This document shows, in pieces, positions 11,001 to 44,872 of a DNA stretch of 53,315 bases (position 1 is the stretch's first letter; the number at the start of each line of letters is the position of its first letter). The notes beneath the pieces are model-generated. The model was not told where the DNA came from. It did not search any database and worked only from the letters and a program-made list of their open reading frames with translations. Made by a program: the position numbers and the translations under genes. The stretch is from a virus (Duplodnaviria > Caudoviricetes), in the IMG/VR virus record IMGVR_UViG_3300030519_000023, positions 1 through 53,315 of that record, one strand, 5' to 3'.

Positions 11001-13483
11001 GACAAGGCCACCTCCCTCTCGCCCAGGGCCGCGCAATCCACCGGCTTGACCATGGCGTCCATAGCTGCGCCCTGGGCGGTGATGACGGCCTCCCCGTCCT
11101 CGTGGCTGATCTGGTAGCTTCCCTCGGGCATCCCAAGGGCGGCTGCCGTCATGACTGCCTTCTCAGGGGTCATCTTGCCCAGAGGGATCTGGTACTCGTT
11201 CAGAGGGGTGGAGTGGAGGGCGGCGATCAGGGCAGCTCTCGCTTCCAGTCGCCCCAGGGCCCCGCCCAGGACCCGACGCGCCTCTTTCAGGGCCTCCACC
11301 TTATTCTTCTGGATCTCTACAGCGGCCGGGATGTCGTGAGCTACTTCCAGGAGTTCCTGGTCACATTGGGCAGCCTTGGCCCGGAGAGCCTGGGCGTCCT
11401 CGGTCACCTGGGGAAGCAAGGTCTCCTGCTCTTGGAGGTGGTGGTGCTCCAGAGCCTCCAGGACGGCTTGCTGGTCCTCGGGGCTGAAGTTCTGCCGAAG
11501 GGCACGGGCGACGACGTGGGCAGCCCCCTCGGGCCCCAGGCACTCAACAACGTCCCGGTCGATCATTCCCTGGCCCAGGGCCGCCAGGCCGACATCGTGC
11601 AGAAGGTCAAAGGCGCCGGCTCCCCGGCTCTGGTGCATTCCCTCCATTTCGCCGGTCTTGAACGGGTCGATGTCGCTCCCCTCGGGGAATCTCTCGCCCA
11701 CCTCCTCCAGGAATCCCTGGACGTGCTGGGTCAGGAGCTGCTCGTGCAGGGACTGGACCAGGGCTTCGTGTTCCTCGGGGGTGCCGACGGCCATCTGGAA
11801 CCCCGGCTCGAAGGTGATCCCCTTCTTGGCTGCCATCTGCTGTTTGTAGGTCGCCCGGAGTGCCTGGCGGGCCCGCAGGAGGTGGGCCAGGGTCTCATTG
11901 GACTCCAGGGATTCCTTCACGGCGTCACGCATGGCGGCGGCCTTCTGTGCCTGGAGGTCTTTAGTCGCCTTGTGAATCTGGATGTTCGCGGCCTGTTCCT
12001 CCGGGCTCTTGGGGCCCGTAGCCTCCTTGGGCGCCTTGCCTTCGGCAGCTTGAATCTCGTTCACGGCAGCCATCAGCTTTTCGCTGGTCATGCCGGCCTT
12101 CTCTGCCCGCTCGGCCAGCTTCTGGTTGTAGCCGGGCCCGGACTTGCCCTGGGTTTCCGAGAGGATGGCGTCCAGGTCCATAGGGGAATCCCCGCCGACC
12201 AAGTTGATCCCGCTGGCTCCCCGGGCCTCGGCGTCCAAGAGAACCTTCTTCTCTGCCTCGGCGACGATCTTCTTGGCCTCGGCCAGCCGGGCCCGGTGCG
12301 CCTCCTTGGCAACCTTGGGGTCGTCCTCGCCCTTGAACAGATCCTCATGGTCGCCGCCCTGGCCACCTGTGGCGGTTCCCAGGACGTCGTTGATGAACTT
12401 GTCCTCGGCCTGCTTGCGCTCCGCCCGAGCCCCGTCAGAGACCTCCCGCTCCTTGGCGAGGTCATCGGGTGACAGGCTGGCCTTCCGCTTCGCCTCGGCC
12501 TCGCGGCGGCCCTTGGCGTTGGCCCTGGACTCCTCCTTGTATTGTGCCGGGTTCTTCAGGCCATGCAGTCGGAGCCCATTCAGTTTTCCCTGGGCGCCAC
12601 CGATGACGCGGGCAGCGCCGTTGCTACCCTGGATCGGCTGGATGAGGAGAGGGTGGCCCTTGGAACCGGGCCCGTCGGGGTGCGCGGTAATCCAGTGGGC
12701 CCCGGCGGGGATGGGGTCTCCGCCCTTGACGATGGTGCGCCAGCCGTCACGCCGTCGCTGGTCCTCGGCGCAATGACAGCAGTTGAGCCCGTCGCCTTGG
12801 TAGTCCGGTGGCTTCGGGCCACCGCACCGGGCCTTGCAACCATCCGGCCTCGGGAAAATCCAGCCGTGCCCAGAATTAGGCATGTCGGGGTCCCAAAGCT
12901 GTAAGCCCTCTGCTTCGCTCTTGGCGATGGTCCGGGTGGCGTTCTCATCTGCCAGCCAGTCCTTGAAGTCGTCGATGGTGTGGGCGGCGATGGAGTGGAA
13001 GCCGTCCCAGCCCTTGCTGTAGTTGGCGAAGTAGGCAGCCTTGGCCTCCGCCTCGGTGTCCCATCCGATCATGACCTTGTGTTCATCGAATTCGCCAGAG
13101 AGCGGATCCACCTGATTGACGATGAAGACCGACTGGCTCTCCGGGTTGGGCCCGACAAAGCAATCCACCCCGTCCCCGTCTGCCCCGAAGGACCGCTTGC
13201 AAAATCCATAATGGTTGGCCATCTTGACCGACCACTTCGTCCCGCAGGAGTCAACCCCGCTTCGGATACTCCCGACGGGATTCTCAATGGCGATGGGGAT
13301 CCCCTGGACGACGATGTGCCCGCGCCGGCCGCCCTCCCGTGGCTCGGCCTTCCCTGCCTGTCGATCCAGATCTGGGGTGGTCAAGGGCTTGATCTTCAGG
13401 GCGATAGTGGGGGTCCAGCCGACGGGAATCAGCCACCCGGTTTCCCCGGATTCGTTATCGGTAAAGGGGATTCCGGCGTTCAT
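8009..13483 (-). CDS. Large polyvalent protein: InPase-like domain, Cys motif, HWIT module and C-terminal SNF2/SF2 helicase
   Basis: IENPVGSIRSG...HYG...GADGDGVDCFVG...FDEHKVMIG (InPase); helicase motifs GAGSGKT, VDEAH, ATGDP, GLNLQ, QRTARIWRLGQ; ATG at 13483 after GAGG. Confidence 0.88.
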   Translation of the reverse strand: MNAGIPFTDNESGETGWLIPVGWTPTIALKIKPLTTPDLDRQAGKAEPREGGRRGHIVVQGIPIAIENPVGSIRSGVDSCGTKWSVKMANHYGFCKRSFGADGDGVDCFVGPNPESQSVFIVNQVDPLSGEFDEHKVMIGWDTEAEAKAAYFANYSKGWDGFHSIAAHTIDDFKDWLADENATRTIAKSEAEGLQLWDPDMPNSGHGWIFPRPDGCKARCGGPKPPDYQGDGLNCCHCAEDQRRRDGWRTIVKGGDPIPAGAHWITAHPDGPGSKGHPLLIQPIQGSNGAARVIGGAQGKLNGLRLHGLKNPAQYKEESRANAKGRREAEAKRKASLSPDDLAKEREVSDGARAERKQAEDKFINDVLGTATGGQGGDHEDLFKGEDDPKVAKEAHRARLAEAKKIVAEAEKKVLLDAEARGASGINLVGGDSPMDLDAILSETQGKSGPGYNQKLAERAEKAGMTSEKLMAAVNEIQAAEGKAPKEATGPKSPEEQAANIQIHKATKDLQAQKAAAMRDAVKESLESNETLAHLLRARQALRATYKQQMAAKKGITFEPGFQMAVGTPEEHEALVQSLHEQLLTQHVQGFLEEVGERFPEGSDIDPFKTGEMEGMHQSRGAGAFDLLHDVGLAALGQGMIDRDVVECLGPEGAAHVVARALRQNFSPEDQQAVLEALEHHHLQEQETLLPQVTEDAQALRAKAAQCDQELLEVAHDIPAAVEIQKNKVEALKEARRVLGGALGRLEARAALIAALHSTPLNEYQIPLGKMTPEKAVMTAAALGMPEGSYQISHEDGEAVITAQGAAMDAMVKPVDCAALGEREVALSLKGGQQDEDNWIPAGFANRLADRYSNPEMEPAEFQRHHDIQDGDDAEAVKGKLQAWMGSRLADGERPEDIVASVYGGAKLDLSPEAQAHWDAAMNEMVPLRVVEKDAKSQPIQEKDKETGKPIEINGKPMLKTRVRAPHEIAADLDPMMQGYMAANPNEAGTTLQGQRVQDDGNFHEALHRALAKDPRLAAAYIPQGELTHEHASAIRDFFYKEHFGGKANSDDAKKWKFDQAIGNLGPEPEKTNAEVQSMNLFAGMSDDDAADAEGAASDKWVEWNNKRQQLESEYHEDATKPTLWDSYIQRMGGTKFAQGAIQDVMRGQLNEAFHDHYHHLTGQKLQMATADISGAQAHLQMTLGDKEAEALAADRKSQQAKLQKKGGGQFGAGKVGDKLKEAKAAQALAKVQDGALFNLNETEEPEPGREEAPAAAWEKPELAPGERYHLGTALENQIRGLMPAASAPFAGRKGSVNVQDGLHMSGKYVQQQRAVKAITQLKRMGLFYGAGSGKTPIMLGSLTTLHQQGKLKKGIIAVPSVVQAQFGAEAIRFIDPSSGFHVHAAPGESYDERLAAYRDPDQQAVVVTHQTLRDDTLKILGDHLGSGPEGAREFLHSASPKDAAASVKEAFIKAGIDFNAMMVDEAHGALDRDGKEDSTWSKVLDAHSYNSEHVVMATGDPLKNDVSEVWSNLNKIDPHKYPPESKDEFMRRYKNDAPLAKKSMAQELARYWFNGRVDPGKECYKSNPSVALTDKQHQAVDQVELASGKLRTGAPDTVKWAKMLAPKSFDGKPEADHQAIAEKVRKAVGTMRESAMNRIINLDPEGGKMAEHVRIAKERIAEGKPVVIFSHNLEAVASIQAAMEKAGIKATSLTGKDSSKDKAAKAARFDSGQADVIVMSDAGATGLNLQHGKCIIHHDIPSTAMVHNQRTARIWRLGQKDNVESITLQADHPWEKNNMERIKRKGVLGEIFQDPNGFQDDSGLAGDLKAVRARAGQANPAAA

Positions 13484-13612
13484 GGGTGCCTCAAAATTCG
13501 ACTTGCAATCCTGCTTGGACGGGGGCATATTTCTGGAGTGCAACAGGGGGGCGGAATATAGCCGGACCAATCCCCAAGTAGGCCCGTCCGAGGCTACCCC
13601 TTTGGCGGGCCA

Positions 13613-14260
13613 TCACTTTGCCTCGGAATCGTTCTGGATTTCGATCACGACGCTCTTGGCTTCAGCCGTCTCCGTTGGCCTTGCCGCTTCCATTTCGTAC
13701 CCGGATACGACCCAGGTCGGAACGGTGTCAGTGGGAAGGGCCGGGTTGTCATAGAAGGGCGATAGGGTTACCTGGTGCTTCCCGCTGGTGGCCCATATTT
13801 GGGGCGTCGTGCTGGGGCGCCGGTTGTCTTTCCCTGGGGGCTCGACCTTCAAGTCTCCACGAACAAGGCATTCCGCCATCCCCCTCATGCAAGCCGCCAA
13901 GTCCTGCCCCCGTTTGGCCCGCTGGTCGATAATATGTTCCAGCCGCTCGTATTCCAGCCCGATTGGGCCAAGTCGCATATGCTTCGTGGTCATGTAGGGC
14001 GGGTGCCCCTTCCCTTTTTGGAGCTGGAGGATGGCGGCATAGGTCGCCTTGACCCGCTGATCCTCAAGCTGCGCGAAGGCGGCCTGATCAACCCACCGGA
14101 CACTGGCCTTAACGGGATGCAATCCGCCCTTCCCGTCATGGCTGAAATGCGCCCGAACCGTGACTGCCCGCTGGGCCTTTTCGATGGGGCGGCCGGAAGT
14201 CACGGCGTTGAAGGCATCCGTCAACAGGTGCCAGAGCAAATACCCACTCGGGGGTTCCAT
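13613..14260 (-). CDS. Putative PBECR (barnase/EndoU/colicin/RelE-like) RNase effector
   Basis: LEHIIDQR...WVVSGYE pattern; RPIEKA site followed by a tag-like segment. Confidence 0.5.
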   Translation of the reverse strand: MEPPSGYLLWHLLTDAFNAVTSGRPIEKAQRAVTVRAHFSHDGKGGLHPVKASVRWVDQAAFAQLEDQRVKATYAAILQLQKGKGHPPYMTTKHMRLGPIGLEYERLEHIIDQRAKRGQDLAACMRGMAECLVRGDLKVEPPGKDNRRPSTTPQIWATSGKHQVTLSPFYDNPALPTDTVPTWVVSGYEMEAARPTETAEAKSVVIEIQNDSEAK

Positions 14261-14805
14261 CAGTCCACCAGGTCGGTCTTGGGGTTCACTTTCTTCTTCT
14301 TGGGCTCGTCCGTCCCGGGCATGGCGATCTCTTTCCCGGGCAGTTTGAAGGCGTTCCCCTTGTGGGGGATGTCGGTGGCCTGGGACGACTCGGTGTCGTA
14401 GCGCGGCTCCTCCATGAGGCCCTGGCGGGTGGCCGTGGAATATGCGTCGGTGCCGAGCTGCCACTTCAGGAACCCATCGGGAAGGGTGCCCACACCGGGG
14501 ACATCGCTGGCGGCCTTGGCGATGGGGCGCTCTCCCTCCGGCGCCGGCCGACCTTCCTCCATCCAGTCCAGGATCCGCCCGGAGATGGCGCGGCCCCGGC
14601 GGCTGTCGCCCTGACTCGACTTGACGATGGTGCGGAGTCGATCCATGGGCAGCCCGTCCATCACGGCCTGATGAATCGCATCGGCAGCCCCGACGCTCTC
14701 GGGCAGCTCCTGGATGGACTTGGTGATGGCGCGGGGCGACTGTGACGCCATGGCCAGGGCCTGGATGGCGGAAAAGAAACGGACTTCGAGGGAATGGTTG
14801 TCCAT
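14260..14805 (-). CDS. Probable internal head protein with three maturation sites
   Basis: RAITKS, RTIVKS and RPIAKA; GGAG RBS. Confidence 0.65.
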   Translation of the reverse strand: MDNHSLEVRFFSAIQALAMASQSPRAITKSIQELPESVGAADAIHQAVMDGLPMDRLRTIVKSSQGDSRRGRAISGRILDWMEEGRPAPEGERPIAKAASDVPGVGTLPDGFLKWQLGTDAYSTATRQGLMEEPRYDTESSQATDIPHKGNAFKLPGKEIAMPGTDEPKKKKVNPKTDLVD

Positions 14806-14822
14806 GACGGCTCCAGAATGGC

Positions 14823-15344
14823 TTAGAAGGTGGTGGTGACGACCTTCCGCCAGGTGTTCGTGGCAATGCAAATGCAGAGCTGTCCCGCATCGGCCCAAAT
14901 CTGACCCTTGATACCAGCGGCCGAGCTGTTGGCGGGAGCGGCAGAGACGAAGGAAAGAGGATCCGCTACCCATGCCGTCCCGGTGTAGGTCACGAACCCG
15001 CCGACGTCCTGGACGTAAAGATTCATTCCCGTCTTGGGCGCCATGAAGTCCCATTCAAAGGAGTAGGGATTGGGCTTACCATCCTTGACGATCTGAGGAT
15101 TGCAGATAGCCAAGTTGCCAGCCTGACCCGACCAAGCCCCGGTGGCGCCAGCGGGAACGATGTAGAGGTCGCCCTGAGTCGGCCCGGTGGGAGGAGTGGT
15201 AGTGGTCGCCGACTTGGGGCCACCATGCAGGAGGGCGTCCAGGATGAAGACCAGCCCGGAAATGTCCCCATTCAGAGGGACCGCCAGAGGCATCGCCAGA
15301 CTGGGGGAAACTTTGGTAGCGGGGGTGGTATTGATAACGGGCAT
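14823..15344 (-). CDS. DUF2793-domain fibre or decoration protein
   Basis: PPTGPTQGDLYIVPAGATGAWSGQAGNLA...WDFMAPKTG; C-terminal GIKGQIWAD..LCICIATNTW fibre motif. Confidence 0.8.
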   Translation of the reverse strand: MPVINTTPATKVSPSLAMPLAVPLNGDISGLVFILDALLHGGPKSATTTTPPTGPTQGDLYIVPAGATGAWSGQAGNLAICNPQIVKDGKPNPYSFEWDFMAPKTGMNLYVQDVGGFVTYTGTAWVADPLSFVSAAPANSSAAGIKGQIWADAGQLCICIATNTWRKVVTTTF

Positions 15345-15434
15345 CGGGGGCTCCTCGCGGGTGGCGTAAAGCCCAACCCTGCCAGGAACCCCCGATGCGA
15401 ACCGCTAGGGCCAAGCCCTACCGTGCCCCTAATG

Positions 15435-15812
15435 CTAGGTTAAATCATCGTCGATCCATGGCCGAATCCGCCCCTTCGCCGGCTTCGGCGGAGCGAGGCG
15501 TGAACGCTGGAGGCCATTCATGCTGCTCCAGCACCCCATGTACGCATCGTGCCGGTCGTTCTCGATCACACTCCCCTTGAAGTTGGGGTAGTTCAGGGCC
15601 ATGACTTCCCGGGTCAGAGCGATTGCCACCTCCTGTCGGGAAATCAGGGTGCGAAAACGATAGTCGTGATTGGCAGTTTCCGAGACCTTAGCCTTCGGAA
15701 AGACTCGCTCTAGGTCACCCTTAACCCGGCCTCGGACCAGGAGCCGATCCTTGGGATCCCCGGCTGGCGGCTGGACGATAGACAGAAACGCATCATTGAG
15801 AAAAACCCACAC
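15435..15812 (-). CDS. Conserved-type hypothetical protein (MWxF..F.S.V / LVRxR / DY.FR / Y.NFK), separately promoted
   Basis: GTG start with GAGG RBS; motif pattern recalled from a widespread uncharacterised family. Confidence 0.75.
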   Translation of the reverse strand: MWVFLNDAFLSIVQPPAGDPKDRLLVRGRVKGDLERVFPKAKVSETANHDYRFRTLISRQEVAIALTREVMALNYPNFKGSVIENDRHDAYMGCWSSMNGLQRSRLAPPKPAKGRIRPWIDDDLT

Positions 15813-15853
15813 TCTAAACCTCCTCGAAAGCCGTTGCAGCGGCGGTATGTCTT

Positions 15854-15882
15854 AATATCGGCCCAAAGCGACCGTAAGTCAA
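15854..15882 (-). promoter_or_regulatory. Sigma70-like promoter for the 15435-15812 gene
   Basis: TTGACT-N17-GATATT, the same architecture as the 7718-7746 promoter. Confidence 0.6.
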
Positions 15883-15902
15883 GAATGGAATTGGACAGCA
15901 CG

Positions 15903-15925
15903 AGAAAACCCCCTTTCGGGGGCGT
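15903..15925 (-). terminator. Rho-independent terminator after the Nudix gene
   Basis: GCCCCC-GAAA-GGGGGT followed by TTTCT. Confidence 0.75.
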
Positions 15926-15927
15926 TC

Positions 15928-17043
15928 TCAAAAATCCATGTCTTGCCAGAATCCAGTGGGTTCCTCGGGGGCGCCCTTGGGGGCCTTCGGCGGCGGGACG
16001 TATTTTGGAACCGGCCGAGGCCCAGCTCCCAGAGCCTCAGCCAGCCCGTGGTCGGTGGCCATGTTGAGGTAGTGGTAGAGGAGAGACCGGGGCACCAGGG
16101 AGACCGCCTGGCTCTCCCAACCGCAATCCGTTGGGGTTCCCCCGACGCGCCTGGCCGTGTAGTACCTGGCCGTCGTGGTGGTCCTCTGGACATCCTCCAA
16201 GAACCCGGTGATCTCCGCCTTCAGTCCGCACTCCTCGAATGCCTCCCGGATCGCGGTGGCCTGGAGGGCGTCGTCCCCGTCGACGTGGCCCTTGGGGAAC
16301 GAGCCCCGGTAGCCTCCGAACTGGTTGGTGGGATGGATAACCCAGACCCGGCCGTCGGGCTCCTCGATCACCAGCCCGGCGGCCGGCGCCTTCCCCTCGG
16401 GGAGGGGGGGCTCCTGAATGGTCGGGTCCTGGCCCTCAACCTCCATCCAGTCCTCGTCCGTCGTCGGGTGGTCGGCCCAGGGCGCCATGGCGACCCCGTT
16501 TAGGGACGCGGGGGCCTTCCCGCCCGGGATCCAGGTTGCGACGGCACTGGGGTCCTCCCAGGTGTCCGCCCCGGTGGCCTTGGACGGATCCTTGATATAG
16601 GCGTCATTCCCCTTCTCGTCCAGCTTGGGGTGCTTCTTGGCCCCAGGGTTGTGCTTGAGGAAATAGGCCAGTTGTTCCTCGGGGGTGTATTTCGGCTTCT
16701 CCGGGGCTCCTTCCGGCTTCGCCCAGGACCACTTCCCGGACGGGGCCTGGCCGGCGGAGTGCGAGGGGGCCTGGCCGGTCTTGCCGGGGATCTTGAACGG
16801 GGCCGACGTGACCGGCTTCGATGCCTGGGTGCCGAAGTGGTTGTTCTTCCACGGCTGGTAGCCGATCTTGTCGTCCGGGTTGACGTGCTTTGGCGGCGGG
16901 GCCGGCGCCATGTTGACCGGCTTCAGGTTCTTGGGGGCGGCTTTGGATGGCGGGGCCTGGGCGGCGGCCCGGGAGTCCTCATGCTCGGGGATCCAGACCC
17001 GCTTGCCGTTGAATTCGCGGAAGAAACCCTTGATCTCCCTCAT
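15928..17043 (-). CDS. Nudix hydrolase with N-terminal tag and Pro/Lys-rich linker
   Basis: Nudix box PKGHVDGDDALQATAIREAFEECGL; ATG at 17043. Confidence 0.88.
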   Translation of the reverse strand: MREIKGFFREFNGKRVWIPEHEDSRAAAQAPPSKAAPKNLKPVNMAPAPPPKHVNPDDKIGYQPWKNNHFGTQASKPVTSAPFKIPGKTGQAPSHSAGQAPSGKWSWAKPEGAPEKPKYTPEEQLAYFLKHNPGAKKHPKLDEKGNDAYIKDPSKATGADTWEDPSAVATWIPGGKAPASLNGVAMAPWADHPTTDEDWMEVEGQDPTIQEPPLPEGKAPAAGLVIEEPDGRVWVIHPTNQFGGYRGSFPKGHVDGDDALQATAIREAFEECGLKAEITGFLEDVQRTTTTARYYTARRVGGTPTDCGWESQAVSLVPRSLLYHYLNMATDHGLAEALGAGPRPVPKYVPPPKAPKGAPEEPTGFWQDMDF

Positions 17044-17504
17044 TACCCCTCCCCGGTCAGAAGGAATTTGATGGCACTCTTGACGGCCCGCTGGAGCATG
17101 AAGCCAACCCATTCCGGGTCCTCGTCTCCACCATGGAGATCATTCGCCGACTTCACGACCTGGGTAGCCAAGAACAGGAAGAATGCCTGGCCCGGATCCT
17201 GACTGGGTTCCTCGAATTTGACCGACCGCTGGGCCCTTACGTGAGCCCCCAGACGGTCGGGAGTATTCCATTCGGTGGCGTAGAACGTTGGGTCCTTCCC
17301 CATGAAGGCGTCACCCAAGACCGTAGCCTTCAAGCGAATGGCAGCCATGGCATCGTCCCTGGTTGCCACTCCTTTCCCGAAGGAGTCGTAATCCTTTAGG
17401 ACATCGGCCACGAATTTCTGAACGATGGCGCCCACGTCGCCCAGGTCATTGAGGGCAACCTTCCCTTTTGGCTGGTGGTCGAAGTTCAGCGAGTTTCCGA
17501 TCAT
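17043..17504 (-). CDS. Helical hypothetical protein coupled to the kinase-ART gene (candidate immunity or partner)
   Basis: Overlaps both neighbours; no enzyme motif; no tag. Confidence 0.65.
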   Translation of the reverse strand: MIGNSLNFDHQPKGKVALNDLGDVGAIVQKFVADVLKDYDSFGKGVATRDDAMAAIRLKATVLGDAFMGKDPTFYATEWNTPDRLGAHVRAQRSVKFEEPSQDPGQAFFLFLATQVVKSANDLHGGDEDPEWVGFMLQRAVKSAIKFLLTGEG

Positions 17505-20251
17505 ACCGTCACCCCTTTCTTAAACTGGTCAACGGAATCAACGAAGGTCGGGTCAGGAGGGAGCATGAGCAATTCGAGTTTCATCGTTTTCCCGTCAGAA
17601 GCCTTACCCTTGCTTAATATCATAAACCGCTGCCCGGGGAGGGTCGTGATCTCCTGTTCGCTGGACATGCTATGGGATCCGTAGGAATCCATGGCCTTGG
17701 CTCCTTCAGCATAGTGAATCTCCAGGAGGAGGTCGCTCCCGAAGTGCTTATGGCTGCCCCAGTCCTCGCCCTTGGAACAACACATAGAATCGGTATTCTG
17801 GAAAAGCAATCCCGGCTCCGCCTGTTGAAGCTGCTTGGCCATGGTAGAGGGAATGTCCATCCAGCGCCAGAGACGGGCCCCTTCGTGCTTCGGAATGGCG
17901 TATTCGTAGCTCTCTTTGATTGCCAATTTGATGTCAGTCCCGCCATAAGAAACGTCATTCCCTTTGAAGTGGTGATTAATCGAACCGGTGGATTGGACGT
18001 TGCTGATGTAGGACTTCAGGTTCTTCGGCATCTTCTCGTATTGGGAATAACCCAGTTTCGCCTCAGCCGGAGTAACGTTGCTTCCGGCGTTCTTGGGTCT
18101 GAAGTCTTCTGGGTTTGCCACGCTGCCAAGCAGCATGAAGTATCCGAGAACCTCGGAGCTATCAATGTTATCGGTGTTCTTACCGAACGGTTTGGATGGG
18201 AAGGCATCTGAAAGGCCAGAAACATCCTCTGCCTGAGCAAGGGAGTAGGTCTTCAGCTTCTCAGAACCAGGGTTTGCTACCACATCCATGTAGGCAACGA
18301 GACCGGACCAATACTGTTTGACATGAGTGCTGGGATGCTGTTCGATGGGGATCAGCTTGGATTCCCCAGTCCCCTTGTCGACTAGATGGACCTGTAAGTT
18401 CTTCAACCGAACCAGGTCCCCCTTCATGGCCGCCCGGTGGACCTCGGCGGCGGCCTCCTGATTCGCTTCGTTGACCTTTTGGGTTGCAGAAAGTCCCTTC
18501 CCTTGGCCGTTCCAGTCGAGGAAGTCGGGCGGCTTGGGAATCTGAGCTTTATCCACCGGGAGCCTCTTTGGGTCAGGCTTGGGGGGATGAGCGATAGCCT
18601 CGGCCTCCGGGAACTGCTTGGCGAGGTAGTTTTTCCGGGCGATCAGCTTGGCCGACAGGGCGGCCTTTTGGTTGTCGTCTCCGGGGCCAAAAAGCTGGAC
18701 TGCCTTGGCGATAACGTCGTCTGGCATTTCCAGTACCGGAACCATGCTCTGGTTCATCTCCTCCTGAGTCATGGAGCCGAAGACGGAGGCAGACTGGGGA
18801 TTCTTGACCGCATCCTTCAGTGTGTGGATCTCGGGGACAGTGTTCCCGAAAGCTGGCCCCTTCTGGCCGCCCTGTGCCCGGAAGTCCAGAGCCCCGCCGG
18901 GGTCGATCCGCACAGCCTTTCCGTCGGGACCGACCAGCAGGTTGTCATAACCCAGGCCGACCACATCCCAATTCGCCAGCCACGCGTCGGCGCCGAACCC
19001 TTCCTTGACCCCGGCTTTTGCCCCCAGAGCTTCCCCGTCGCCGACCTTTGCCAGGCCCTCTTGGAAAGCAGAGGCGATCCCAAGCTTTCCGTCCTTCTGG
19101 ACCAGCTTCACCTTGGGGGCACCGATGCCCATCAGGTCGTAGAACTTGGCGGCCAGCATTTCACTCTTGGCCTGATCCTCGCTCCCTGGGAACTTGATAT
19201 ACCACTTCTTGCCGAAGGCGTCCTCATACAGGCCACCCGGGTTCGATCCCTTCTGTGGGCCAATCTGCTTGAATGGGAACGCCTTGGGAAGCGGGGCTAC
19301 CTTGGGAACCACCGTGGCCGGTCCCTTCTTCTCGACCAGCTCCCACCGATGGTTAGCGTTCAGGACGTAGGTCTGCCCGTTCTCCAGCTTGGTATCGCCG
19401 ATCTTGGGCCCCGTCTGGTCGCCCATCCCCTTGAACTTGAAGGCATCCTTCCACGACTTCTTGCCCCACAAACCAGGGACCGCCGTGAAGGTCATATCCT
19501 TGCCGTCCGCCTTGAGCTTGATCCCGCCGTCGACGGCCGGGTTGTTGACGACAGAGTAGGTGTCGCCCCCGTACTCGAATTGCATTCCCTCTTTAACCTG
19601 GGAGAATGCGGGGTGCGACCCGATAGTCGGGGTCTTGTCCGCCTTGGGCTTGGTTGGAGCCTTCCCGACGGCCACCTGGGCTTCCAAGTGAGCCGCCAGG
19701 GCCAGGTATTCATCCTTGGGCACCAGGTAACTCTGCTGCTTCTTTTTGTATCCGGCTGGGTGCATTGCCGCAATGGCTTTGGCTACGGCCGCCTTCATCG
19801 GGGTGCCGTCGTCGTTCTTCTTGCTGACCATGAAGAACTTTCCGCTGGGCGTCGAGAGGTGGACGTAGAACCCGCCGAGGTTGGCAGAATGCCCCTTGCC
19901 GATGGCCTGGAGCTGATCCACAAGGCTGGGCTCGGCCGCCTGGGGCTCGGTCGTTGCTGGAACGGGATCCGGCTCCGGCTGCGCCTCGTCACCCCCAAAC
20001 ATCTTTTCAAAGTCCCGGTCCACGTCGAACGAAACGGCTCCATGCGGGGGGGCGGCTGCCTCTCGGGGGGGCTCGGTGCCCTTGGGTGCTATGGTGGTGG
20101 CACCGGGTTCCTTCGGCGACTCCTGGGCGTCGGGATACATCCTCGCAAAATCATCGTCCGTGGTTCCCTTGACCTCGTAATCCCGCCCCTTGACATGGAC
20201 GAGCTGGCCGTGGACGGTGCGGTAGAAGTCTTTCCCGTGATGGAGGGCCAT
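17501..20251 (-). CDS. Effector: PI3/PI4K- or HipA-like kinase domain plus C-terminal R-S-E ADP-ribosyltransferase
   Basis: Kinase: GPQKGSNPGG, WYIK, SEMLAAKFY, WLANWDVVGLGYDNL, RIDPGG. ART: RLWRW...SMCCS...SEQEITTLPGQRF. Confidence 0.75.
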   Translation of the reverse strand: MALHHGKDFYRTVHGQLVHVKGRDYEVKGTTDDDFARMYPDAQESPKEPGATTIAPKGTEPPREAAAPPHGAVSFDVDRDFEKMFGGDEAQPEPDPVPATTEPQAAEPSLVDQLQAIGKGHSANLGGFYVHLSTPSGKFFMVSKKNDDGTPMKAAVAKAIAAMHPAGYKKKQQSYLVPKDEYLALAAHLEAQVAVGKAPTKPKADKTPTIGSHPAFSQVKEGMQFEYGGDTYSVVNNPAVDGGIKLKADGKDMTFTAVPGLWGKKSWKDAFKFKGMGDQTGPKIGDTKLENGQTYVLNANHRWELVEKKGPATVVPKVAPLPKAFPFKQIGPQKGSNPGGLYEDAFGKKWYIKFPGSEDQAKSEMLAAKFYDLMGIGAPKVKLVQKDGKLGIASAFQEGLAKVGDGEALGAKAGVKEGFGADAWLANWDVVGLGYDNLLVGPDGKAVRIDPGGALDFRAQGGQKGPAFGNTVPEIHTLKDAVKNPQSASVFGSMTQEEMNQSMVPVLEMPDDVIAKAVQLFGPGDDNQKAALSAKLIARKNYLAKQFPEAEAIAHPPKPDPKRLPVDKAQIPKPPDFLDWNGQGKGLSATQKVNEANQEAAAEVHRAAMKGDLVRLKNLQVHLVDKGTGESKLIPIEQHPSTHVKQYWSGLVAYMDVVANPGSEKLKTYSLAQAEDVSGLSDAFPSKPFGKNTDNIDSSEVLGYFMLLGSVANPEDFRPKNAGSNVTPAEAKLGYSQYEKMPKNLKSYISNVQSTGSINHHFKGNDVSYGGTDIKLAIKESYEYAIPKHEGARLWRWMDIPSTMAKQLQQAEPGLLFQNTDSMCCSKGEDWGSHKHFGSDLLLEIHYAEGAKAMDSYGSHSMSSEQEITTLPGQRFMILSKGKASDGKTMKLELLMLPPDPTFVDSVDQFKKGVTV

Positions 20252-20254
20252 GGT

Positions 20255-22885
20255 CTACTCCATCTCTTTCAGTTTGGTCATGGCCTTTTTGGCGTAGCCG
20301 GCCCATTTCTGGCCGAAGTCGCCCCAGGACGGCCCTTCCTCGGATTTATTCGGGAGCCCCTGCTTTGCCTTGTGCCCGGCGACGAGCGCCAGGTGCTTGG
20401 CGTGTTGGACGTAGCTCTCCAGCTCTTTCTTGCTGGGGGTGTAGCCGGAGTCCTTGGTGATGGCGAGGTGGGTATCGCTCAATCCGTCCATGATGGGTTT
20501 GGTCGCGGCATCCCAGTCGTGTTCGTGCCACTTCTCCGAGGGAGGCTTCGGCATGAACGGATCGGGCTTGACTGCGACCTTCGGCGTCTGGCCAAGAGAA
20601 TCAGCCATCTTCCCGTGATATTCGGCCAGGGCGGCATGAGCCTTGGCGGCTGCGGTATGGCTGCTCTGGAGGTGCGCCGGCCCAGGCTTGATGGGGGTAT
20701 CGGTCAGGTTGAAGGAATTGCCAAGTTGGGCGTGATACACCCCAGCCTTCCCATGGGCTCCGGCCGCCTTCAGGTGTGATTCGGCATCTCCCATGTTCGC
20801 GGCATTGCCGGAGGCATACTGGGCAGCCTCGGAATAGGCGTGAGCATCACTGGCATGTCCGGTGGCCTCGGGGTGATGCGCCGTGATCTTTCCGGCGAGG
20901 TCCGAGATAGCATGGGCCAAGTCGCTGGCTCCGCCCGGGGTTGGATTATCTTTGAACCCGGCCCCGGCACCCTTCACGACGCCCCTGGCCTCCTGCACCT
21001 GGGGGTGGGCTTCTTCCCAGTCCAACACGTCGGTATCGGGCATGACCTGGGCGTTCTTGGTTCCCCACTCCTTGGCCGCCTTCTTGATGCTCTCGATGAC
21101 TGCGTTCCCAGAGACGCCCAGGTCTTTGGTGTGCATCTTGCCGTCGGCGAATTCATACCAGACCTTCCCGCCCGGATAGGAAAGGCCCGCCTGGAGGTGG
21201 TCCTTGGCGTTGAAGTAGATCCGATGCTTGGCTCCCTTGGTCCACTCCTTGCCGACCCCGGCCAGCTCGGCGACGGTGGGCATGGATCCCCCGCCCTGCT
21301 CCTCCGGGTGCTGCTCGATGGCCAGCTCCCAGTGGTGATTTTCGTTGAGGACGAACTGCTTCCCGTTCTCGGTCTTGGTATCGCCGACCTTCGGGCCGTC
21401 CTCGTCCGGGACCAGGGCGGCAGCATTGGCCGAATGCCAGCCCATTTGGTAGCCCTTCATGGCGTCGATGTTGCTCCCGACCGGGGCGCCAGGCTTGAGC
21501 TGGGAGTCCATGAAATCTTTGTTCTCGCTTGGGATCACAGAGAGCCCCTTGGCGTGAGCCTCCTGGCCCATCTCGTAGGCCGACTTGGGTTGGGCCGCAA
21601 GGTATGCGGCATCCCCGGCCGCATCCTCAACCTCGCCTTCGGCCTGTTCGATGGCGAATCCTACATGCTTTGCCTTGGCGGCAAGGTGCTGGGCGGCCTT
21701 CTCTTGGTGGTAGTCCTTCAGTTTCTGGCTGATCGGAAGGTCGGCGTCCAGGATGGCCTGGTGAGAATTGGCAGCCGCATCATGGGCAGCTACGGCCGCG
21801 CCATGCTCCGTGGAATTGTGCTTGGAACTCACGGCATGGAACGTGTCGGCTTCCTCGGATTGAGCCGAGGCCAGCCCCGCTCCCTTATGGTATTTGGCCA
21901 TCTGGTTGTGATAGGCGGCATTCGAGAAGTGTTCCTTCTGTGCGTCCCCTTCGCTACCAATCGCCACCTTGGCCTGAGCCACGGCGGCATCCTGATGGGC
22001 CTTTACGGCGGAATCGTGGGTCTGGACATCATCCGTCGGGGAATAGCTGTAGGCGTCGGCCTCCTCGCTGGCTTCCTTGGCTGCTAGGGCATCCTCGGAG
22101 ATGCCGGTCACCTTCACCGGCTCCGGCACGGGGGCCTCCTTGGGCACCTCTGCGCCATGGAGGACCGCCATGACCTTGGCCGCCACCTCGCCGCCGGCCG
22201 CGCCATGCCCGAAGAAGAAATGTGGAAAGGCCGAATCGTTCCCGTGGTGGACCGCTCCGCCCTGCTTGGGCTCCATGGTCTCGCCGGTCACCTTGTAGAT
22301 GGCCTCCTTGATGGCGTTGGCGTCGGCCTTGTTCGCCGCCCGGAGATACCAACCCTTGTTCTTGTTGACGCCCATGGCGGTGCGCTCCGCCAGGGACGCC
22401 ACCTTGGCCCCTTCGGGAGCATGGCCCTCGGTCCACTTCGTCTTGCCCTCGTGGACTGCGTAGTGGCCGACCTTCTTCCCCGCCTTGGCTGGGGGCTGGG
22501 CGGCATGAACCGCGTCATCGTAGGCTGCCACCGGGACCAGCTTGCCGTTGGACTCTCGGAAGGTGGCGTCATGGTGGGACTTGCCGATGGGCCTCTGTTC
22601 CAGGATCGTTCCGTTCGCCATGTGCTTCACTGGCCTGGTCGCCATGGTCGCGGCCAGGGGGCCCGACATGGCTCCCCCCATCGAACCGGCGCATTTGCAA
22701 ACCAGACTGGAGCCCTCGTCCGGGTCCATCCCGTCGTCCACGGCGTCATCGAACGCCTTCAGGAGGTCCCGGCCTTCGTCCACGTCCTCGGGCTTCCGGC
22801 AGAAGTTCTTGGGAAGGCATTTCGCCTTATAGTAGGCACCGGCTTTCATGGCCAGAGCATTGGCATGGTCCTTCTTGATGGCCAC
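20255..22885 (-). CDS. Large His/Ala-repeat internal virion protein
   Basis: GTG with GAGGAGG RBS; RDLLKA and RPIGKS sites; tag; AHxxAAxxH repeats; modules shared with neighbouring genes. Confidence 0.7.
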   Translation of the reverse strand: MAIKKDHANALAMKAGAYYKAKCLPKNFCRKPEDVDEGRDLLKAFDDAVDDGMDPDEGSSLVCKCAGSMGGAMSGPLAATMATRPVKHMANGTILEQRPIGKSHHDATFRESNGKLVPVAAYDDAVHAAQPPAKAGKKVGHYAVHEGKTKWTEGHAPEGAKVASLAERTAMGVNKNKGWYLRAANKADANAIKEAIYKVTGETMEPKQGGAVHHGNDSAFPHFFFGHGAAGGEVAAKVMAVLHGAEVPKEAPVPEPVKVTGISEDALAAKEASEEADAYSYSPTDDVQTHDSAVKAHQDAAVAQAKVAIGSEGDAQKEHFSNAAYHNQMAKYHKGAGLASAQSEEADTFHAVSSKHNSTEHGAAVAAHDAAANSHQAILDADLPISQKLKDYHQEKAAQHLAAKAKHVGFAIEQAEGEVEDAAGDAAYLAAQPKSAYEMGQEAHAKGLSVIPSENKDFMDSQLKPGAPVGSNIDAMKGYQMGWHSANAAALVPDEDGPKVGDTKTENGKQFVLNENHHWELAIEQHPEEQGGGSMPTVAELAGVGKEWTKGAKHRIYFNAKDHLQAGLSYPGGKVWYEFADGKMHTKDLGVSGNAVIESIKKAAKEWGTKNAQVMPDTDVLDWEEAHPQVQEARGVVKGAGAGFKDNPTPGGASDLAHAISDLAGKITAHHPEATGHASDAHAYSEAAQYASGNAANMGDAESHLKAAGAHGKAGVYHAQLGNSFNLTDTPIKPGPAHLQSSHTAAAKAHAALAEYHGKMADSLGQTPKVAVKPDPFMPKPPSEKWHEHDWDAATKPIMDGLSDTHLAITKDSGYTPSKKELESYVQHAKHLALVAGHKAKQGLPNKSEEGPSWGDFGQKWAGYAKKAMTKLKEME

Positions 22886-22895
22886 GGGGCCTCCT

Positions 22896-23879
22896 CTACT
22901 TGTCCAGGTTCAACAGGGACTGCCGGCGAAGCTCCAGGGCGGCCAGGGCGATCTTGTCGCCGCCGACCCGGGACTTCTGCTTTTCCAACTGGCCCAGCCG
23001 GGCGTCGACGTAGGACTTCATCATCTGGCGGCTGTTGGCCTCGTCCTCCTGGTCCCCTTGGGCCTTGGCAACTCCCCGGTCTGCCTTGGAATATTTGGCC
23101 AGGGCTGCATTCATCTCGGACGCTGGGACCTTGGCATCACCAGCTTTACCCTTGTGGTAGCGGCTGGCCTCATGGTGGGCCAGCCATGCCTTCTGGTGCC
23201 CCTCGTTGCCCTCCGTGGGGGGATGGACCTTCCCGTCCATGTCCTCGTACCCATCGCTATCCTCGGTCGCCTGGTTATGGCTCATTTCGGCAGCCAGGTG
23301 AAGCGAATGGGCGATGTAATGGTCCTTCTGGCTCCCGGTACGGTCTGCCTCCTGCGATGCGCGGTGGGCCGTCTGTGAGTAGCCAAGCATTTCTTTTGCG
23401 TCACGCCCCTTGACGGCTTCGGCGGCAGCGATAGCTTTCCCGCTGGGCGACTCGTCGGTGACCTTCTCCGGCGCCTTCTCTTTGCCTTCAGCCTTGGTCT
23501 CCGGCTGGACTTCCTTGTCTACCGGCTTATCCAGCTCGGTCTTGGCCGGGGCGGATTCGCTCCCTGCCTTCAGATGGGCATGGATCGCCGTGGCGTCCTG
23601 GAGGCTGGACACATGATGGTGGTCATAGGCGCCGACCCGGCCGAAGTGGCTGGCCCCGGATCTTCGCTTCTCTGTCTTGATGTCCAGGTGCTTGGCGGCG
23701 GCCTCGATCTGTTTTCCGTCTTCGGCGTCGGATGCCCGGAGGTAGTGGGTTCCTGACTTGTGCTTGCCGATGGCGGTTCGTTCGTGCAGCTCCGCCGGGC
23801 GCCCCTGCCCTTCGCCACCCTCCCCCACGTAGACAGTCTTGCCATTGACGACGCGATAGTAGCTCTTGTGGTGGCTCAT
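22896..23879 (-). CDS. Tagged internal virion protein, partial paralog of 20255-22885
   Basis: AGGAG RBS and ATG at 23879; MSHHKSYYRVVNGKTVYV; shared LxERTAxG...YLRA module. Confidence 0.7.
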   Translation of the reverse strand: MSHHKSYYRVVNGKTVYVGEGGEGQGRPAELHERTAIGKHKSGTHYLRASDAEDGKQIEAAAKHLDIKTEKRRSGASHFGRVGAYDHHHVSSLQDATAIHAHLKAGSESAPAKTELDKPVDKEVQPETKAEGKEKAPEKVTDESPSGKAIAAAEAVKGRDAKEMLGYSQTAHRASQEADRTGSQKDHYIAHSLHLAAEMSHNQATEDSDGYEDMDGKVHPPTEGNEGHQKAWLAHHEASRYHKGKAGDAKVPASEMNAALAKYSKADRGVAKAQGDQEDEANSRQMMKSYVDARLGQLEKQKSRVGGDKIALAALELRRQSLLNLDK

Positions 23880-24005
23880 CGGATACTCCTGAATCCCGAT
23901 TGGACCCCGAGCGGAGGGCTTCATCCGTTCCATACCCAGTGCTACCAGCCACCTATGGCGTTGCCCATAGGACTTTAGGGTGCCCTTTACCTTGACTCTC
24001 CAGGC

Positions 24006-24866
24006 ATGGGCACCTCCGTTCTTACTCCCGGCCTGGAGACTCGCGGAAGCGGGGGGCACGGAGTCTGCCTACAGTTCGAGCGTTCCGTCTTCAAGGCCCA
24101 GGCCGAAGTTGAGGGTGGCCAGCGGGTCGTCTACCTCGAAGCCAGCACTGAAATCCGGGACATGCAGGGCGACCGGATCCTGCTCTCTGCCCTCGAAGCG
24201 TCCATTCCCTACTTCCTGAAATATGGCCGGCTCGACCTGGACCATGCCTCCGTTCTGGGGCAGATTCGGGGCGTCAAGGTCAACCCCTACGCTTTTGAAA
24301 TCGGGCGTCCTCTGGATGTGCGACTGCGTGATGGCTCCATCTGGGTCAAGGCCGCCATCTATACGGCCGGAGAGGGAAACCGGTTCACTGAAGCCGCCGA
24401 CCTTTTCTGGGACTCCCTTCAATCGAAGCCTCCCGTCATCTGGTATCCCAGCGTGGCCGGCGATGTCTATGCCGAAGAAACCACCTCCGAAGGTGGCCTC
24501 CCCACTCAGGAAGTGCGCGGCATCCGGTGGCACTCCATCGGCCTGTCCCGGACCCCGGTCAATACCGCTGTCGGTTCTGTCACCACCATGCCGGTTCGCG
24601 CCTTCGCCAAAGCATTCTCCGGCCTGGCCGACCTGAAGGACACCCTGGGCTCCCTGGCCCCCGCGCTGCCCTCTCGCGGCCTCGCCACGGCGGCCGGGAA
24701 GGTCCCTGGCGCCGATGACCCCATCTATATCCGCCTCGCCATGGACGCCCTCCTGGAGGCCACGGAGGCGGGTGGCCTGGATGGCTACCTAACCCTCGCC
24801 ACCGAGCGGGGAGTGCCCGCCGATGTGGCCATGGCCCTTCTCGTCGTCCTTCTCTCTCGTCGCTGA
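24006..24866 (+). CDS. Prohead (maturation) protease
   Basis: YLEASTEIRDMQGDRI..., LDLDH, EIGRP, PSVAG; lies upstream of scaffold and capsid genes. Confidence 0.82.
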   Translation: MGTSVLTPGLETRGSGGHGVCLQFERSVFKAQAEVEGGQRVVYLEASTEIRDMQGDRILLSALEASIPYFLKYGRLDLDHASVLGQIRGVKVNPYAFEIGRPLDVRLRDGSIWVKAAIYTAGEGNRFTEAADLFWDSLQSKPPVIWYPSVAGDVYAEETTSEGGLPTQEVRGIRWHSIGLSRTPVNTAVGSVTTMPVRAFAKAFSGLADLKDTLGSLAPALPSRGLATAAGKVPGADDPIYIRLAMDALLEATEAGGLDGYLTLATERGVPADVAMALLVVLLSRR

Positions 24867-24882
24867 ACCAAGGAGCCAATTC

Positions 24883-25749
24883 ATGAGTGCCCTTTCCGAT
24901 CTGCAAACCGCCGTGCGCTCCATCCTCAAGGGGATCAAGGAGGATCCCGCCAAGAAGGTCGGCGGCAAGGCTCCCGTCCCGACCAATCCCGGCGATCCCG
25001 ATGAACTCCAGCCCGATCCCCGCGTCGGCGATGCCTCGCCCACGAAGGCCGATGCCACCAAGGCCAAGGCTGATGCGGAGCCTGAAACCGACGGCGAAGC
25101 GGATCCTGAAGCGGATCCCGAAGGCGAGGACGGCGAAGTCAACCCTCCCGCAACCACCAAGGAAGAAGAAGGCGGCGAAGGCGATACCACTACCACGGGG
25201 GAGGAGGGCGACGACCCTGAGAATCCCCAGCGCCCCGGTGCCAAACGTCCCGTCGCCAAGGGCTTCGATGAATTCGGCAACCGCGACCTGGAGCCTGGCG
25301 AAGTCCGGTCCCTCCTAAAGGCCCTGGAATACGGCGTCACGCCCCCCATGACCCAGGACAAGCTCCTGCACGAGGGCGAAAACCTCAAGGCCGTCCTGGA
25401 CGACATCCTCAAGTTCCTGACCCATGCCGCCCAGAAGATGGAAGGCCACGACGTCATCATGGGCGACATTTTCGCGGAGCTGGACCGCCTCAAGAAGGGA
25501 TCCGATGTCCACGACCGGGAGATTGCCAAGGCCCTGAGCCTTTATGGCGATCCCACCAAGGCCCCCGCCGAAGCCCCCCGCGCAATCTCCAAGTCCCTGG
25601 TCCTCCCCTCCACTCCTCCCGCTGCCCCGGCTCTGCCCGGAGCCGACGTGGCGAACGAAATCTACTCCGCCCTCAAGGCCGGAAAGATGACCAACGCCCA
25701 GGCGATGCAGCGGTGCCGGGAGACACGGGCCGCCGCGTCGGTCCAGTAG
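24883..25749 (+). CDS. Capsid scaffolding protein
   Basis: Acidic low-complexity N-terminal half plus coiled coil; five RxPhixK[SAG] sites; lies between protease and capsid genes. Confidence 0.7.
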   Translation: MSALSDLQTAVRSILKGIKEDPAKKVGGKAPVPTNPGDPDELQPDPRVGDASPTKADATKAKADAEPETDGEADPEADPEGEDGEVNPPATTKEEEGGEGDTTTTGEEGDDPENPQRPGAKRPVAKGFDEFGNRDLEPGEVRSLLKALEYGVTPPMTQDKLLHEGENLKAVLDDILKFLTHAAQKMEGHDVIMGDIFAELDRLKKGSDVHDREIAKALSLYGDPTKAPAEAPRAISKSLVLPSTPPAAPALPGADVANEIYSALKAGKMTNAQAMQRCRETRAAASVQ

Positions 25750-30135: not shown

Positions 30136-30144
30136 GGTGACCCC

Positions 30145-38347: not shown

Positions 38348-38476
38348 AGGGAAAGCCTCGCCCGGGAGGGCCCTTAGAAGGCCGAACCCCTTGTGTTAGG
38401 TGGCTCCTATCCCTATGCCCATGGCTCCGGGCGCCCCTCCTCTCTGCGAATCCTTGGGGATCACATGGAGGCGTTT

Positions 38477-44257: not shown

Positions 44258-44377
44258 GCCATCTCCCGATCTCCACATTATCCACAAGGCGACGCGCCCA
44301 GCAATACCAGCGGGGTATCCCGTTGGACGACCGCCTCCCGGGCCGGGCCTTGCTCAAGGCTGGAGGTGGAGGGCCCC

Positions 44378-44872
44378 ATGGCCACGATTGAAGCGGCAAT
44401 GCCATTCCTTTTGAACCACGAAGGCGGCTGGAGCAACCGGCGGCAGGACCGTGGCGGCCCGACCATGAAGGGGATCACCCTGGCCGTGGCTCAGGCATTC
44501 GGCATCATGACTGAGGATGACCTCCGCAACATTTCCGACGAGGACGTGCTGCGGATCTATCGCGCCGGCTACTGGCGGTTCGATGGGGTGAACGATCAGA
44601 GGGTCGCCAGCAAGTGCTTCGACCTCTGCGTCAACTTCGGGGACGGGACGGAGCTGAAAATGATCCAGGTCATCGTCGGAGTCCCGGCCGATGGGCATTA
44701 TGGTCCCGCGACCGAGACCGCGATCAACGCCGAGGACCCGGACCAGCTCATCCAGGCTATCTCGGATGCTGCCGTGGCCAGGTATGAGGAAATCGTGGCC
44801 AGGAATCCCAACGACGAGGAATTCATGCGGGGCTGGCTGGTTCGTGCCAAGGACGTGCCGGATGTCGCCTGA
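44378..44872 (+). CDS. Endolysin, glycoside hydrolase family 108 (copy 2)
   Basis: HEGGWSN..DRGGPT..GIT; GGAGG RBS. Confidence 0.92.
   Translation: MATIEAAMPFLLNHEGGWSNRRQDRGGPTMKGITLAVAQAFGIMTEDDLRNISDEDVLRIYRAGYWRFDGVNDQRVASKCFDLCVNFGDGTELKMIQVIVGVPADGHYGPATETAINAEDPDQLIQAISDAAVARYEEIVARNPNDEEFMRGWLVRAKDVPDVA

Follow-up and report, generated by a model that had tools for sequence, protein, structure and literature searches.

A portable header some 30 residues long, made of a junction and a predicted hairpin, opens putative cargo modules next to the head genes of an uncultured tailed phage

The viral contig IMGVR_UViG_3300030519_000023 from IMG/VR (Caudoviricetes; 53,315 bp, about 60% complete by CheckV), hereafter the window, encodes a short shared tag in several proteins whose genes lie beside its head genes. 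On the evidence of sequence, this tag represents, in this phage, a portable header some 30 residues long that opens the cargo modules of polyvalent proteins, which probably travel in the heads of many uncultured phages. The header consists of a junction, hydrophobic-x-K↓[A/S] (the arrow marks the candidate cleavage bond), and, after seven residues, a basic and His-rich predicted beta-hairpin. It is apparently undescribed. We propose that a neighbouring head-maturation protease would cut at the junction and that the hairpin would act as a handling label for capsid cargo, an account of the whole that we regard as somewhat probable.

The pattern [FY]R..[NH]G[KQ].V.[VI] has exactly four matches in the six-frame translation of the whole window (23826-23858, 22529-22561, 20192-20224 and 16990-17022, all on the minus strand), each inside a real open reading frame (ORF). 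A tag profile built from 22 instances, taken from the window and its relatives, finds the same four tags in this translation, at 34-42 bits, and nothing else. All of them lie in a cargo block of minus-strand genes that diverges from the head module. The tags, and the genes of the block to which this report refers, are as follows.

8009-24059, minus strand: cargo block, 16 kb, holding all tags
23790-23879, minus strand: tag at the very N-terminus of the 327-aa protein, start Met at 23879; 39.4 bits
22493-22594, minus strand: junction RPIGK↓S and tag of the 876-aa protein, residues 98-131; 41.5 bits
20156-20251, minus strand: tag at the N-terminus of the 916-aa protein, start at 20251; 36.7 bits
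16954-17043, minus strand: tag at the N-terminus of the Nudix protein, start at 17043; 34.3 bits
22896-23879, minus strand: 327-aa His/Ala-rich cargo protein, with tag, loop and an alpha/beta domain at residues 31-109
20255-22885, minus strand: 876-aa His/Ala-rich protein, with an N-terminal pro-region of about 100 aa
17501-20251, minus strand: 916-aa protein, tag at its N-terminus
15928-17043, minus strand: Nudix protein, tag at its N-terminus
14260-15054, minus strand: 264-aa ORF with three candidate protease sites
13613-14260, minus strand: 215-aa 'PBECR-like' protein, with junction RPIEK↓A at 14177-14191
8009-13570, minus strand: 1853-aa polyvalent protein with InPase and SNF2-helicase domains (Pfam), the last gene of the block

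A first-pass annotation of the window, made from its sequence alone, had listed five tagged proteins, three with the tag at the N-terminus and two with a copy just behind a predicted cleavage site. Pattern and profile both recover four of the five. The N-terminal copies are where they were placed, in the 327-aa, 916-aa and Nudix proteins, and in the 876-aa protein the tag sits at about residue 103, immediately after RPIGK↓S. The fifth protein, labeled 'PBECR-like', has the junction RPIEK↓A in common with the family but not the hairpin, and in the six-frame search its supposed tag was not reported even at a reporting limit of E = 1000. In the relative L003 (protein P0002), the junction equivalent to RPIEK↓A precedes a canonical tag, and the homologue of the 264-aa ORF in L004 (P0017) holds a canonical internal tag. 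Across three related contigs the tag is kept at the same places, giving 12 instances over four sources with the window included. Because it is conserved in these contigs and is also retrieved by a profile search of a protein database, the tag exceeds what chance would give.

The tagged proteins had been called unrelated, and this holds only in part. After the tag, the 327-aa protein has a further domain in common with the 876-aa protein (blastp E 8e-7), which in turn shares a second hairpin-like motif with the 916-aa protein (blastp E 1e-9). The second motif lies at 21305-21385 (minus strand; 876-aa protein, from residue 501) and 19319-19399 (minus strand; 916-aa protein, from residue 285), reads approximately G-D-T-K-x-E-N-G-x-x-[FY]-V-L-N-x-N-H-x-W-E-L, has the look of a hairpin, and is also found in the L002 orthologue P0014. 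As for the names given to the carriers, Pfam supports the Nudix assignment (E 7e-13, 49.2 bits against a cut-off of 21.1). The label 'kinase-ART' finds no support for the 916-aa protein, whose body has no match in Pfam, in PHROGs or in a sequence search of the PDB, and 'PBECR-like' fares no better, the protein at 13613-14260 having no match in Pfam (E <= 0.01) or in PHROGs (E <= 0.001). The predicted mature N-termini of most tags bear His at position 2 and/or 3 (S-H-H, A-H-H, A-H-V; 23870-23879, 22571-22582 and 20237-20251, minus strand), a pattern reminiscent of ATCUN-type copper/nickel-binding motifs.

When the tag profile was searched against a set of 1.84 billion representative proteins, 156 of them matched at E <= 0.001, including 33 at E <= 1e-10; 154 matched proteins were stored and rescanned locally. 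Setting aside presumed false hits (P0078, P0085, P0123, P0141 and P0154) and 19 proteins used for the profile or close to it, we obtained 167 instances of at least 20 bits in 127 proteins. The full unit, about 30 residues long, reads hydrophobic-x-K-[A/S]-H-[V/I]-K-x-[H/Y]-[T/Y]-R, then a turn of 2-4 residues ending in G-K, then x-V-x-V, often continued by x-x-[H/Y]-[D/E]-D-x-R. Its basic, His-rich hairpin stands seven residues past the junction and takes the form [H/Y/F]-[T/Y/F]-R-x(2-4)-G-K-x-V-x-V. About 15 positions of the tag are conserved in sequence across very different phages, and many proteins of the family carry multiple copies, from two to five. By position, 129 of the 167 instances are internal, 35 follow a leader of no more than 15 residues, and 3 have no leader; the short leaders end in a hydrophobic run plus Lys. 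Since the tag is mostly internal, in the wider family it heads modules within polyvalent proteins instead of acting as an N-terminal leader. A search with a 42-aa alignment, in which only the 8000 candidates sharing most words were scored, returned 18 proteins, all close relatives.

Of the 154 proteins, 53 have Pfam families at E <= 1e-4, all of which leave the tag uncovered. InPase is the most frequent (14 proteins), followed by ART-PolyVal (9), WGR (5), RadC (4), Zeta_toxin, S-AdoMet lyase and NUDIX (3 each), and LPD1 and DarA_C (2 each); Acb1, Topoisom_I, ParB_N, SNF2, GNAT and several DUFs also occur. Wherever tags were checked against domain coordinates, they fall between Pfam domains and never within them. 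P0037, for example, is ordered InPase (23-154), tag (171-201), ART (224-355), tag (362-388). The earlier suggestion of a portable tag on interchangeable enzyme modules is supported by these searches. A few small proteins of 80-104 aa (P0097, P0111, P0120, P0131 and P0151) are mainly two hairpin copies with Lys-rich linkers; one of these has a signal-peptide-like start, and an ESM Atlas look-up with P0097 gave no usable match.

K-[A/S/G] stands immediately before the tag in 139 of 167 instances, a count that is partly circular, to the detriment of our reading, in that the profile included the junction columns; the P3 residue is Leu, Ile, Val, Met or Phe in 138 of 167. Independently of the junction, two DNA patterns describing only the hairpin were run on IMG/VR and matched 17 and 11 loci. 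Apart from two chance hits in broken frames, these represent 22 distinct real contexts, and K-[A/S/G] recurs at the same distance in 16 of them. Among homologues of the 327-aa protein, some begin with M-[A/S]-H and the others have a leader of 7-13 residues ending in LLK, and because of these two forms the K↓[A/S] bond behaves as a boundary, in some cases the gene start itself. In the window itself, the 327-aa gene is probably translated from the Met at 23879, translation from the longer ORF start at 24059 being improbable.

A related arrangement heads the large helicases. In the 1853-aa protein, which has junction sites at residues 213-218 and 278-283, the second of these, RTIVK↓G, is followed by a hairpin of another type, H-W-I-T-x-H-P-x-G...P-L-L-I (12611-12739, minus strand). 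In the cultured Bordetella phage PHB04 a junction and RWIT hairpin open the helicase gene, and in the helicase of Thermus phage Lalka27a they occur at about residue 90. Each of the InPase, methylase and helicase genes of PHB04 starts with a short hydrophobic leader ending in K↓A; the hairpins there are divergent, and the tag profile does not detect them. Because the helicases of the window, PHB04 and Lalka27a all have a junction and then an RWIT or HWIT hairpin, the comparison suggests that junction plus hairpin is a general heading for cargo modules in this phage group. The Lalka27a protein also supplies a link to the virion. The window's 1853-aa protein is homologous to Lalka27a gp41 (1715 aa; 33% identity, E 2e-88), which a 2026 preprint reports, from peptide mass fingerprinting, as a virion-associated 'large virionic helicase' (bioRxiv 10.64898/2026.04.20.719267). 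This homology is the one experimental link to a virion, an indirect one, and the tagged proteins would likewise be packaged and delivered into the host. The one paper found for PHB04 contains no proteomics.

At the divergent boundary of the cargo block, the tagged genes adjoin the protease, scaffold and capsid genes, as seen in the gene map with PHROG assignments.

24006-24866, plus strand: prohead protease with gp21/assemblin fold (fold model, homologues)
24823-25749, plus strand: acidic scaffold-like protein, net charge -20, with five candidate protease sites
25801-27249, plus strand: major capsid protein
25858-25875, plus strand: candidate maturation site RTLVK↓S, residues 20-25 of the major capsid protein

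With the protease model as query, Foldseek ranks T4 gp21 (5jbl) first, at E 3e-4 to 5e-4, prob 1.00 and a TM on target of 0.51-0.56, and herpesvirus proteases come next. The same protease family includes a PHB04 protein (E 4e-102) and gp8 of Pseudomonas phage Dolphis (E 1e-88), for which the depositors' annotation is capsid maturation protease. H80 (in DLDH) and S149 (in PSVAG), candidate catalytic residues, are invariant in 40 of 40 homologues. Equally invariant are K30 and K202, the P1 residues of candidate self-cleavage sites K30↓A and K202↓A, which AlphaFold2 places in low-confidence linkers on either side of a confident core (residues 31-196). Searches of PDB sequences with the protease and with a protease profile gave nothing meaningful, and longer, fused forms of the protease were not found, the latter being weak evidence. 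A model of the protease co-folded with a 44-residue segment of junction and tag had a score of 0.01 and a mark of 0.32, and counts neither way.

Counts of the motif R.[ILVFM].K[SAG] come to 20 in the 6349 aa of the 13 head and cargo proteins, and to 2 in the 8220 aa of the 28 other ORFs. When the residues of the 13-protein set were shuffled, the mean was 0.92 and the maximum 6, and none of 2000 shuffles reached 20. In three related contigs the corresponding counts, head and cargo against others, are 9 vs 0, 5 vs 0 and 15 vs 1; in these repeat counts the relatives are homologous to the window's proteins, and the motif with its Arg at P5 had been defined after these proteins were viewed, both of which reduce what the enrichment can say in our favor. 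Besides the five sites in the scaffold-like protein and the one in the capsid protein, there are two in the protease, three in the 876-aa protein (residues 39-44, 98-103 and 634-639) and two near the C-terminus of the 327-aa protein. No match lies in the 916-aa, Nudix, 153-aa or DUF2793 proteins. PHB04 and Dolphis retain K↓[A/S] at equivalent capsid and scaffold positions. Arg at P5 was considered as a general feature of the sites and rejected, being absent from these two phages. The reading of the junction as a cleavage site, advanced in the first-pass annotation, gains support because the motif is enriched in head and cargo proteins, 20 against the 0.92 expected, and because the neighboring protease folds like gp21. 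The junction is a likely cutting site of the head protease.

Similar gene neighborhoods surround the header elsewhere. In G004 the terminase and portal genes come first, then those of a tagged 565-aa protein, a ParB-like protein and an SNF2 helicase, and last a protease-like match, which is weak (E 2e-8). In L011 the tagged giant proteins come after genes that resemble a small terminase and a portal, each by a weak PHROG match. In PHB04, whose capsid protein is 30% identical to that of the window, the portal gene is followed by the cargo block, the protease and the capsid. With the hairpin pattern that has a four-residue turn, 11 of 11 matches in viral contigs are real, against about 3 of 31 in prokaryotes (185,579 genomes, one per species), and from this difference the unit looks viral rather than a general feature of mobile elements. 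No viral loci were found for P0041 or P0046, and the loci retrieved with P0037 matched its InPase domain alone, without tags. Three phages of 119-180 kb, two of them rated complete, have the hairpin at about residue 23 of a protein of about 300 aa. The coordinates of the three genes are listed here.

L078, 9922-10815: protein of about 300 aa with hairpin
L080, 9969-10868: protein of about 300 aa with hairpin
L077, 9265-10188: protein of about 300 aa with hairpin

The L078 protein, the sole one scanned, matches the sigma factor family phrog_351 in its C-terminal half (E 5e-14), and may be a packaged transcription factor.

Structure prediction is in keeping with a hairpin that stands apart from the domain behind it. 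AlphaFold2 was given residues 1-140 of the 327-aa protein and an alignment of 15 sequences. The tag is modeled as a beta-hairpin, with strands at 7-11 and 14-18 and an N-G turn between them, and a loop parts it from the next domain, a confident alpha/beta domain at residues 31-109 (predicted local distance difference test, pLDDT, 85-96). This domain has only common alpha/beta look-alikes (best Z 6.1) and no clear fold match. Over the 28 residues from the junction, the tag averages a net charge of +2.9 and 2.7 His (192 instances). The scaffold-like protein, for its part, has a long acidic low-complexity stretch, its net charge of -20 standing opposite to that of the basic tags. An electrostatic contact between scaffold and tag is conceivable.

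The account we propose joins these elements. Cargo modules in the window would come in two arrangements. The 327-aa, 916-aa and Nudix proteins would each have a separate gene whose start falls on the residue behind the junction or close to it, and in the 876-aa protein the module would lie inside a precursor. The neighboring head-maturation protease would most likely cut precursors at R-x-hydrophobic-x-K↓[S/A/G], and the same enzyme would also process the scaffold, the N-terminus of the capsid protein, and itself. Whether made by a start codon or by a protease cut, the N-terminus of mature cargo would be the hairpin. The hairpin in turn would most likely be a handling label for proteins of the capsid interior, serving their incorporation into the prohead, their ejection along with the DNA, or both, and would be read by some component of the head. 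A stronger version of this, in which the hairpin is a general address label, used broadly among uncultured phages and read by a conserved prohead component (the scaffold, the inner capsid surface or the portal), is possible but in our estimate doubtful; if it held, any protein that starts with the hairpin, or is cut so as to start with it, would be loaded into the head and later injected.

Several observations weigh against the proposed account. A tblastn search of 50,697 GenBank phage records, with the tag segment and with the two-tag protein P0069, found no canonical tag. Lalka27a gp41, the protein that ties the block to a virion, bears the different RWIT hairpin and not this tag. The three phages of 119-180 kb have a different sequence upstream of their hairpin, and a protease of the window's family was not found in them; a search of these same genomes for Peptidase_S77 also returned nothing, and is uninformative since control genomes were equally silent. 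In PHB04 and Dolphis, which lack the Arg at P5, only the shorter hydrophobic-x-K-[S/A/G] is dense in scaffolds and proteases. Fusions to portal or MuF domains were not seen by Pfam among the 154 tagged proteins, and the hairpin itself is predicted with modest confidence (pLDDT about 57-61). Finally, the presence of tagged proteins in the virion, cutting at K↓[A/S], and binding of the hairpin as an address are all three what we infer from comparison and modeling rather than from experiment.

Three other explanations cover parts of the same evidence. The hairpin could be a nucleic-acid escort, a basic and His-rich element that binds packaged DNA non-specifically, so that the proteins bearing it sit on the genome and exit the capsid with it; this is the generic DNA-binding hairpin that the first-pass annotation had named as counting against its own proposal. 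Its mean net charge and His content are of the kind expected, and the small proteins made of just two hairpins and Lys-rich linkers fit as well. Charge-driven binding, however, would need less than some 15 conserved positions, and no nucleic-acid-binding family of Pfam matches the tag in the 154 proteins. This explanation, the weightiest of the three, we consider unlikely. Somewhat less likely still is that the header is a processing signal and nothing more, the hairpin serving as a docking element on the primed side that offers K↓[A/S] to the head protease, with no part in addressing or ejection. In favor of docking, the hairpin keeps a constant distance from the junction (139 of 167 instances; 16 of the 22 hairpin-only contexts), and tags co-occur with this protease family in contigs like the window. 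Yet for three of the window's four tags there is no upstream part to cut, and these tags keep the conserved residues all the same, the sites in capsid, scaffold and protease do without a hairpin, and the hairpins of the 119-180 kb phages persist with other sequence upstream and no protease of the family found.

Last in weight is a passive role, in which the hairpin is a spacer or an inherited remnant, a structural cap without function that was moved about by module shuffling or by the splitting of polyproteins. Gene boundaries are found to coincide with junctions, and InPase and helicase are fused in the window and separate in PHB04, where the leader of the helicase ends in K↓A; this fits module shuffling. 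Against this, the hairpin is too highly conserved for a functionless spacer, while the linkers and domains that flank it diverge beyond recognition, and we hold this explanation to be very improbable. The role of the hairpin as an address or handling label for capsid cargo is accordingly the one we favor.

The header invites comparison with the capsid targeting sequence (CTS) of T4, the first 10 or so residues of IPI-III and Alt, which gp21 removes by cutting after Glu (PMC9026906). Both are short peptides that open otherwise unrelated proteins of one phage, both are tied to a prohead-protease site, and both are associated with proteins delivered along with DNA. The CTS stands at the extreme N-terminus of its precursor; three of the four tags in the window do so too, but in the wider family only 38 of 167 instances are at or near the N-terminus. 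The first-pass annotation had cited the T4 precedent, and stated it correctly; the parallel fails in one respect, that the CTS precedes its cut and is lost, whereas the hairpin follows its candidate cut, after Lys, and would be kept. As judged from sequence, the candidate site lies N-terminal to the hairpin in 139 of 167 instances, and removal of the T4 type would not be expected. In SPN3US and phiKZ-like phages the head protease (gp245 in SPN3US) cuts many head and ejection proteins, and itself, at one short motif, and the N-terminal pro-regions of 20-254 residues that are removed in SPN3US are thought to target proteins into the prohead (PMC10052503). Those pro-regions are long and removed, while the tag of the window is short and would be retained. 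The cut of the prohead protease in these phages follows Glu, and we know of no conserved retained header reported for them. The MuF domain of head proteins is folded and exceeds 100 residues, and packaging of the P1 Dar proteins needs helper proteins. MuF carriers and P1 Dar are likewise modular routes for variable effectors into heads, but without a hairpin header of 30 residues.

Polyvalent proteins are the closest company of the header. Their packaging and injection were predicted by Iyer et al. (2017), who noted their location beside portal and head genes and ascribed their processing to embedded zincin-like metallopeptidases and C-terminal assemblin-like peptidases (PMC5512222). The tagged proteins share with them both gene location and repertoire (InPase, ART-PolyVal, RadC, LPD1, DarA_C, SNF2, ParB and Nudix). 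The location is beside protease, scaffold and capsid genes in the window and after the portal in G004, L011 and PHB04. The 1853-aa protein is multi-domain, and the four tagged proteins of the window are solo or two-domain; tagged proteins elsewhere combine InPase, ART-PolyVal, RadC, Zeta_toxin, SAM lyase and LPD1. The combination of InPase and SNF2 helicase, present in the 1853-aa protein, is a hallmark of polyvalent proteins (PMC5512222). A header of junction plus hairpin was found neither in the searched passages of PMC5512222 nor in a further literature search, though papers beyond these may have it. The tag seems to be restricted to viruses, whereas polyvalent proteins belong to phages and conjugative elements alike.

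Other features of the window bear on its identity and layout. It encodes a contractile tail, as judged from the following genes.

38393-40252: tail sheath
28594-31416: baseplate genes

A DUF2793 tail-fiber-like protein (14823-15344, minus strand) sits in the middle of the cargo block, far from the tail genes, and an endolysin-like paralogue pair, both phrog_315, occupies opposite ends of the contig (1592-2086, minus strand; 44366-44872, plus strand). At 14258-14262 (minus strand) the 264-aa ORF ends and the 'PBECR-like' gene begins within a single TGATG, an overlap of stop and start codons that suggests translational coupling of the two. A programmed frameshift joining these ORFs was considered and rejected, the genes just overlapping at TGATG.

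Beyond T4 and the phiKZ-like giant phages, little is known, to our knowledge, of how proteins are selected for the capsid interior. Polyvalent proteins are predicted injected weapons, and their processing and loading have been largely guesswork. The header would provide a concrete cleavage motif and a protease to test, as well as a candidate handle for loading phage heads with chosen proteins. It could also serve as a key with which to search metagenomes for virion-delivered effectors, among them Nudix, ADP-ribosyltransferase, Acb1-like, SAM-lyase and Zeta-like proteins. Should the address-label reading prove true, the hairpin would be a sequence signature of virion-delivered anti-defence effectors, and would represent a second capsid-addressing code, mechanistically unlike the removable CTS of T4.

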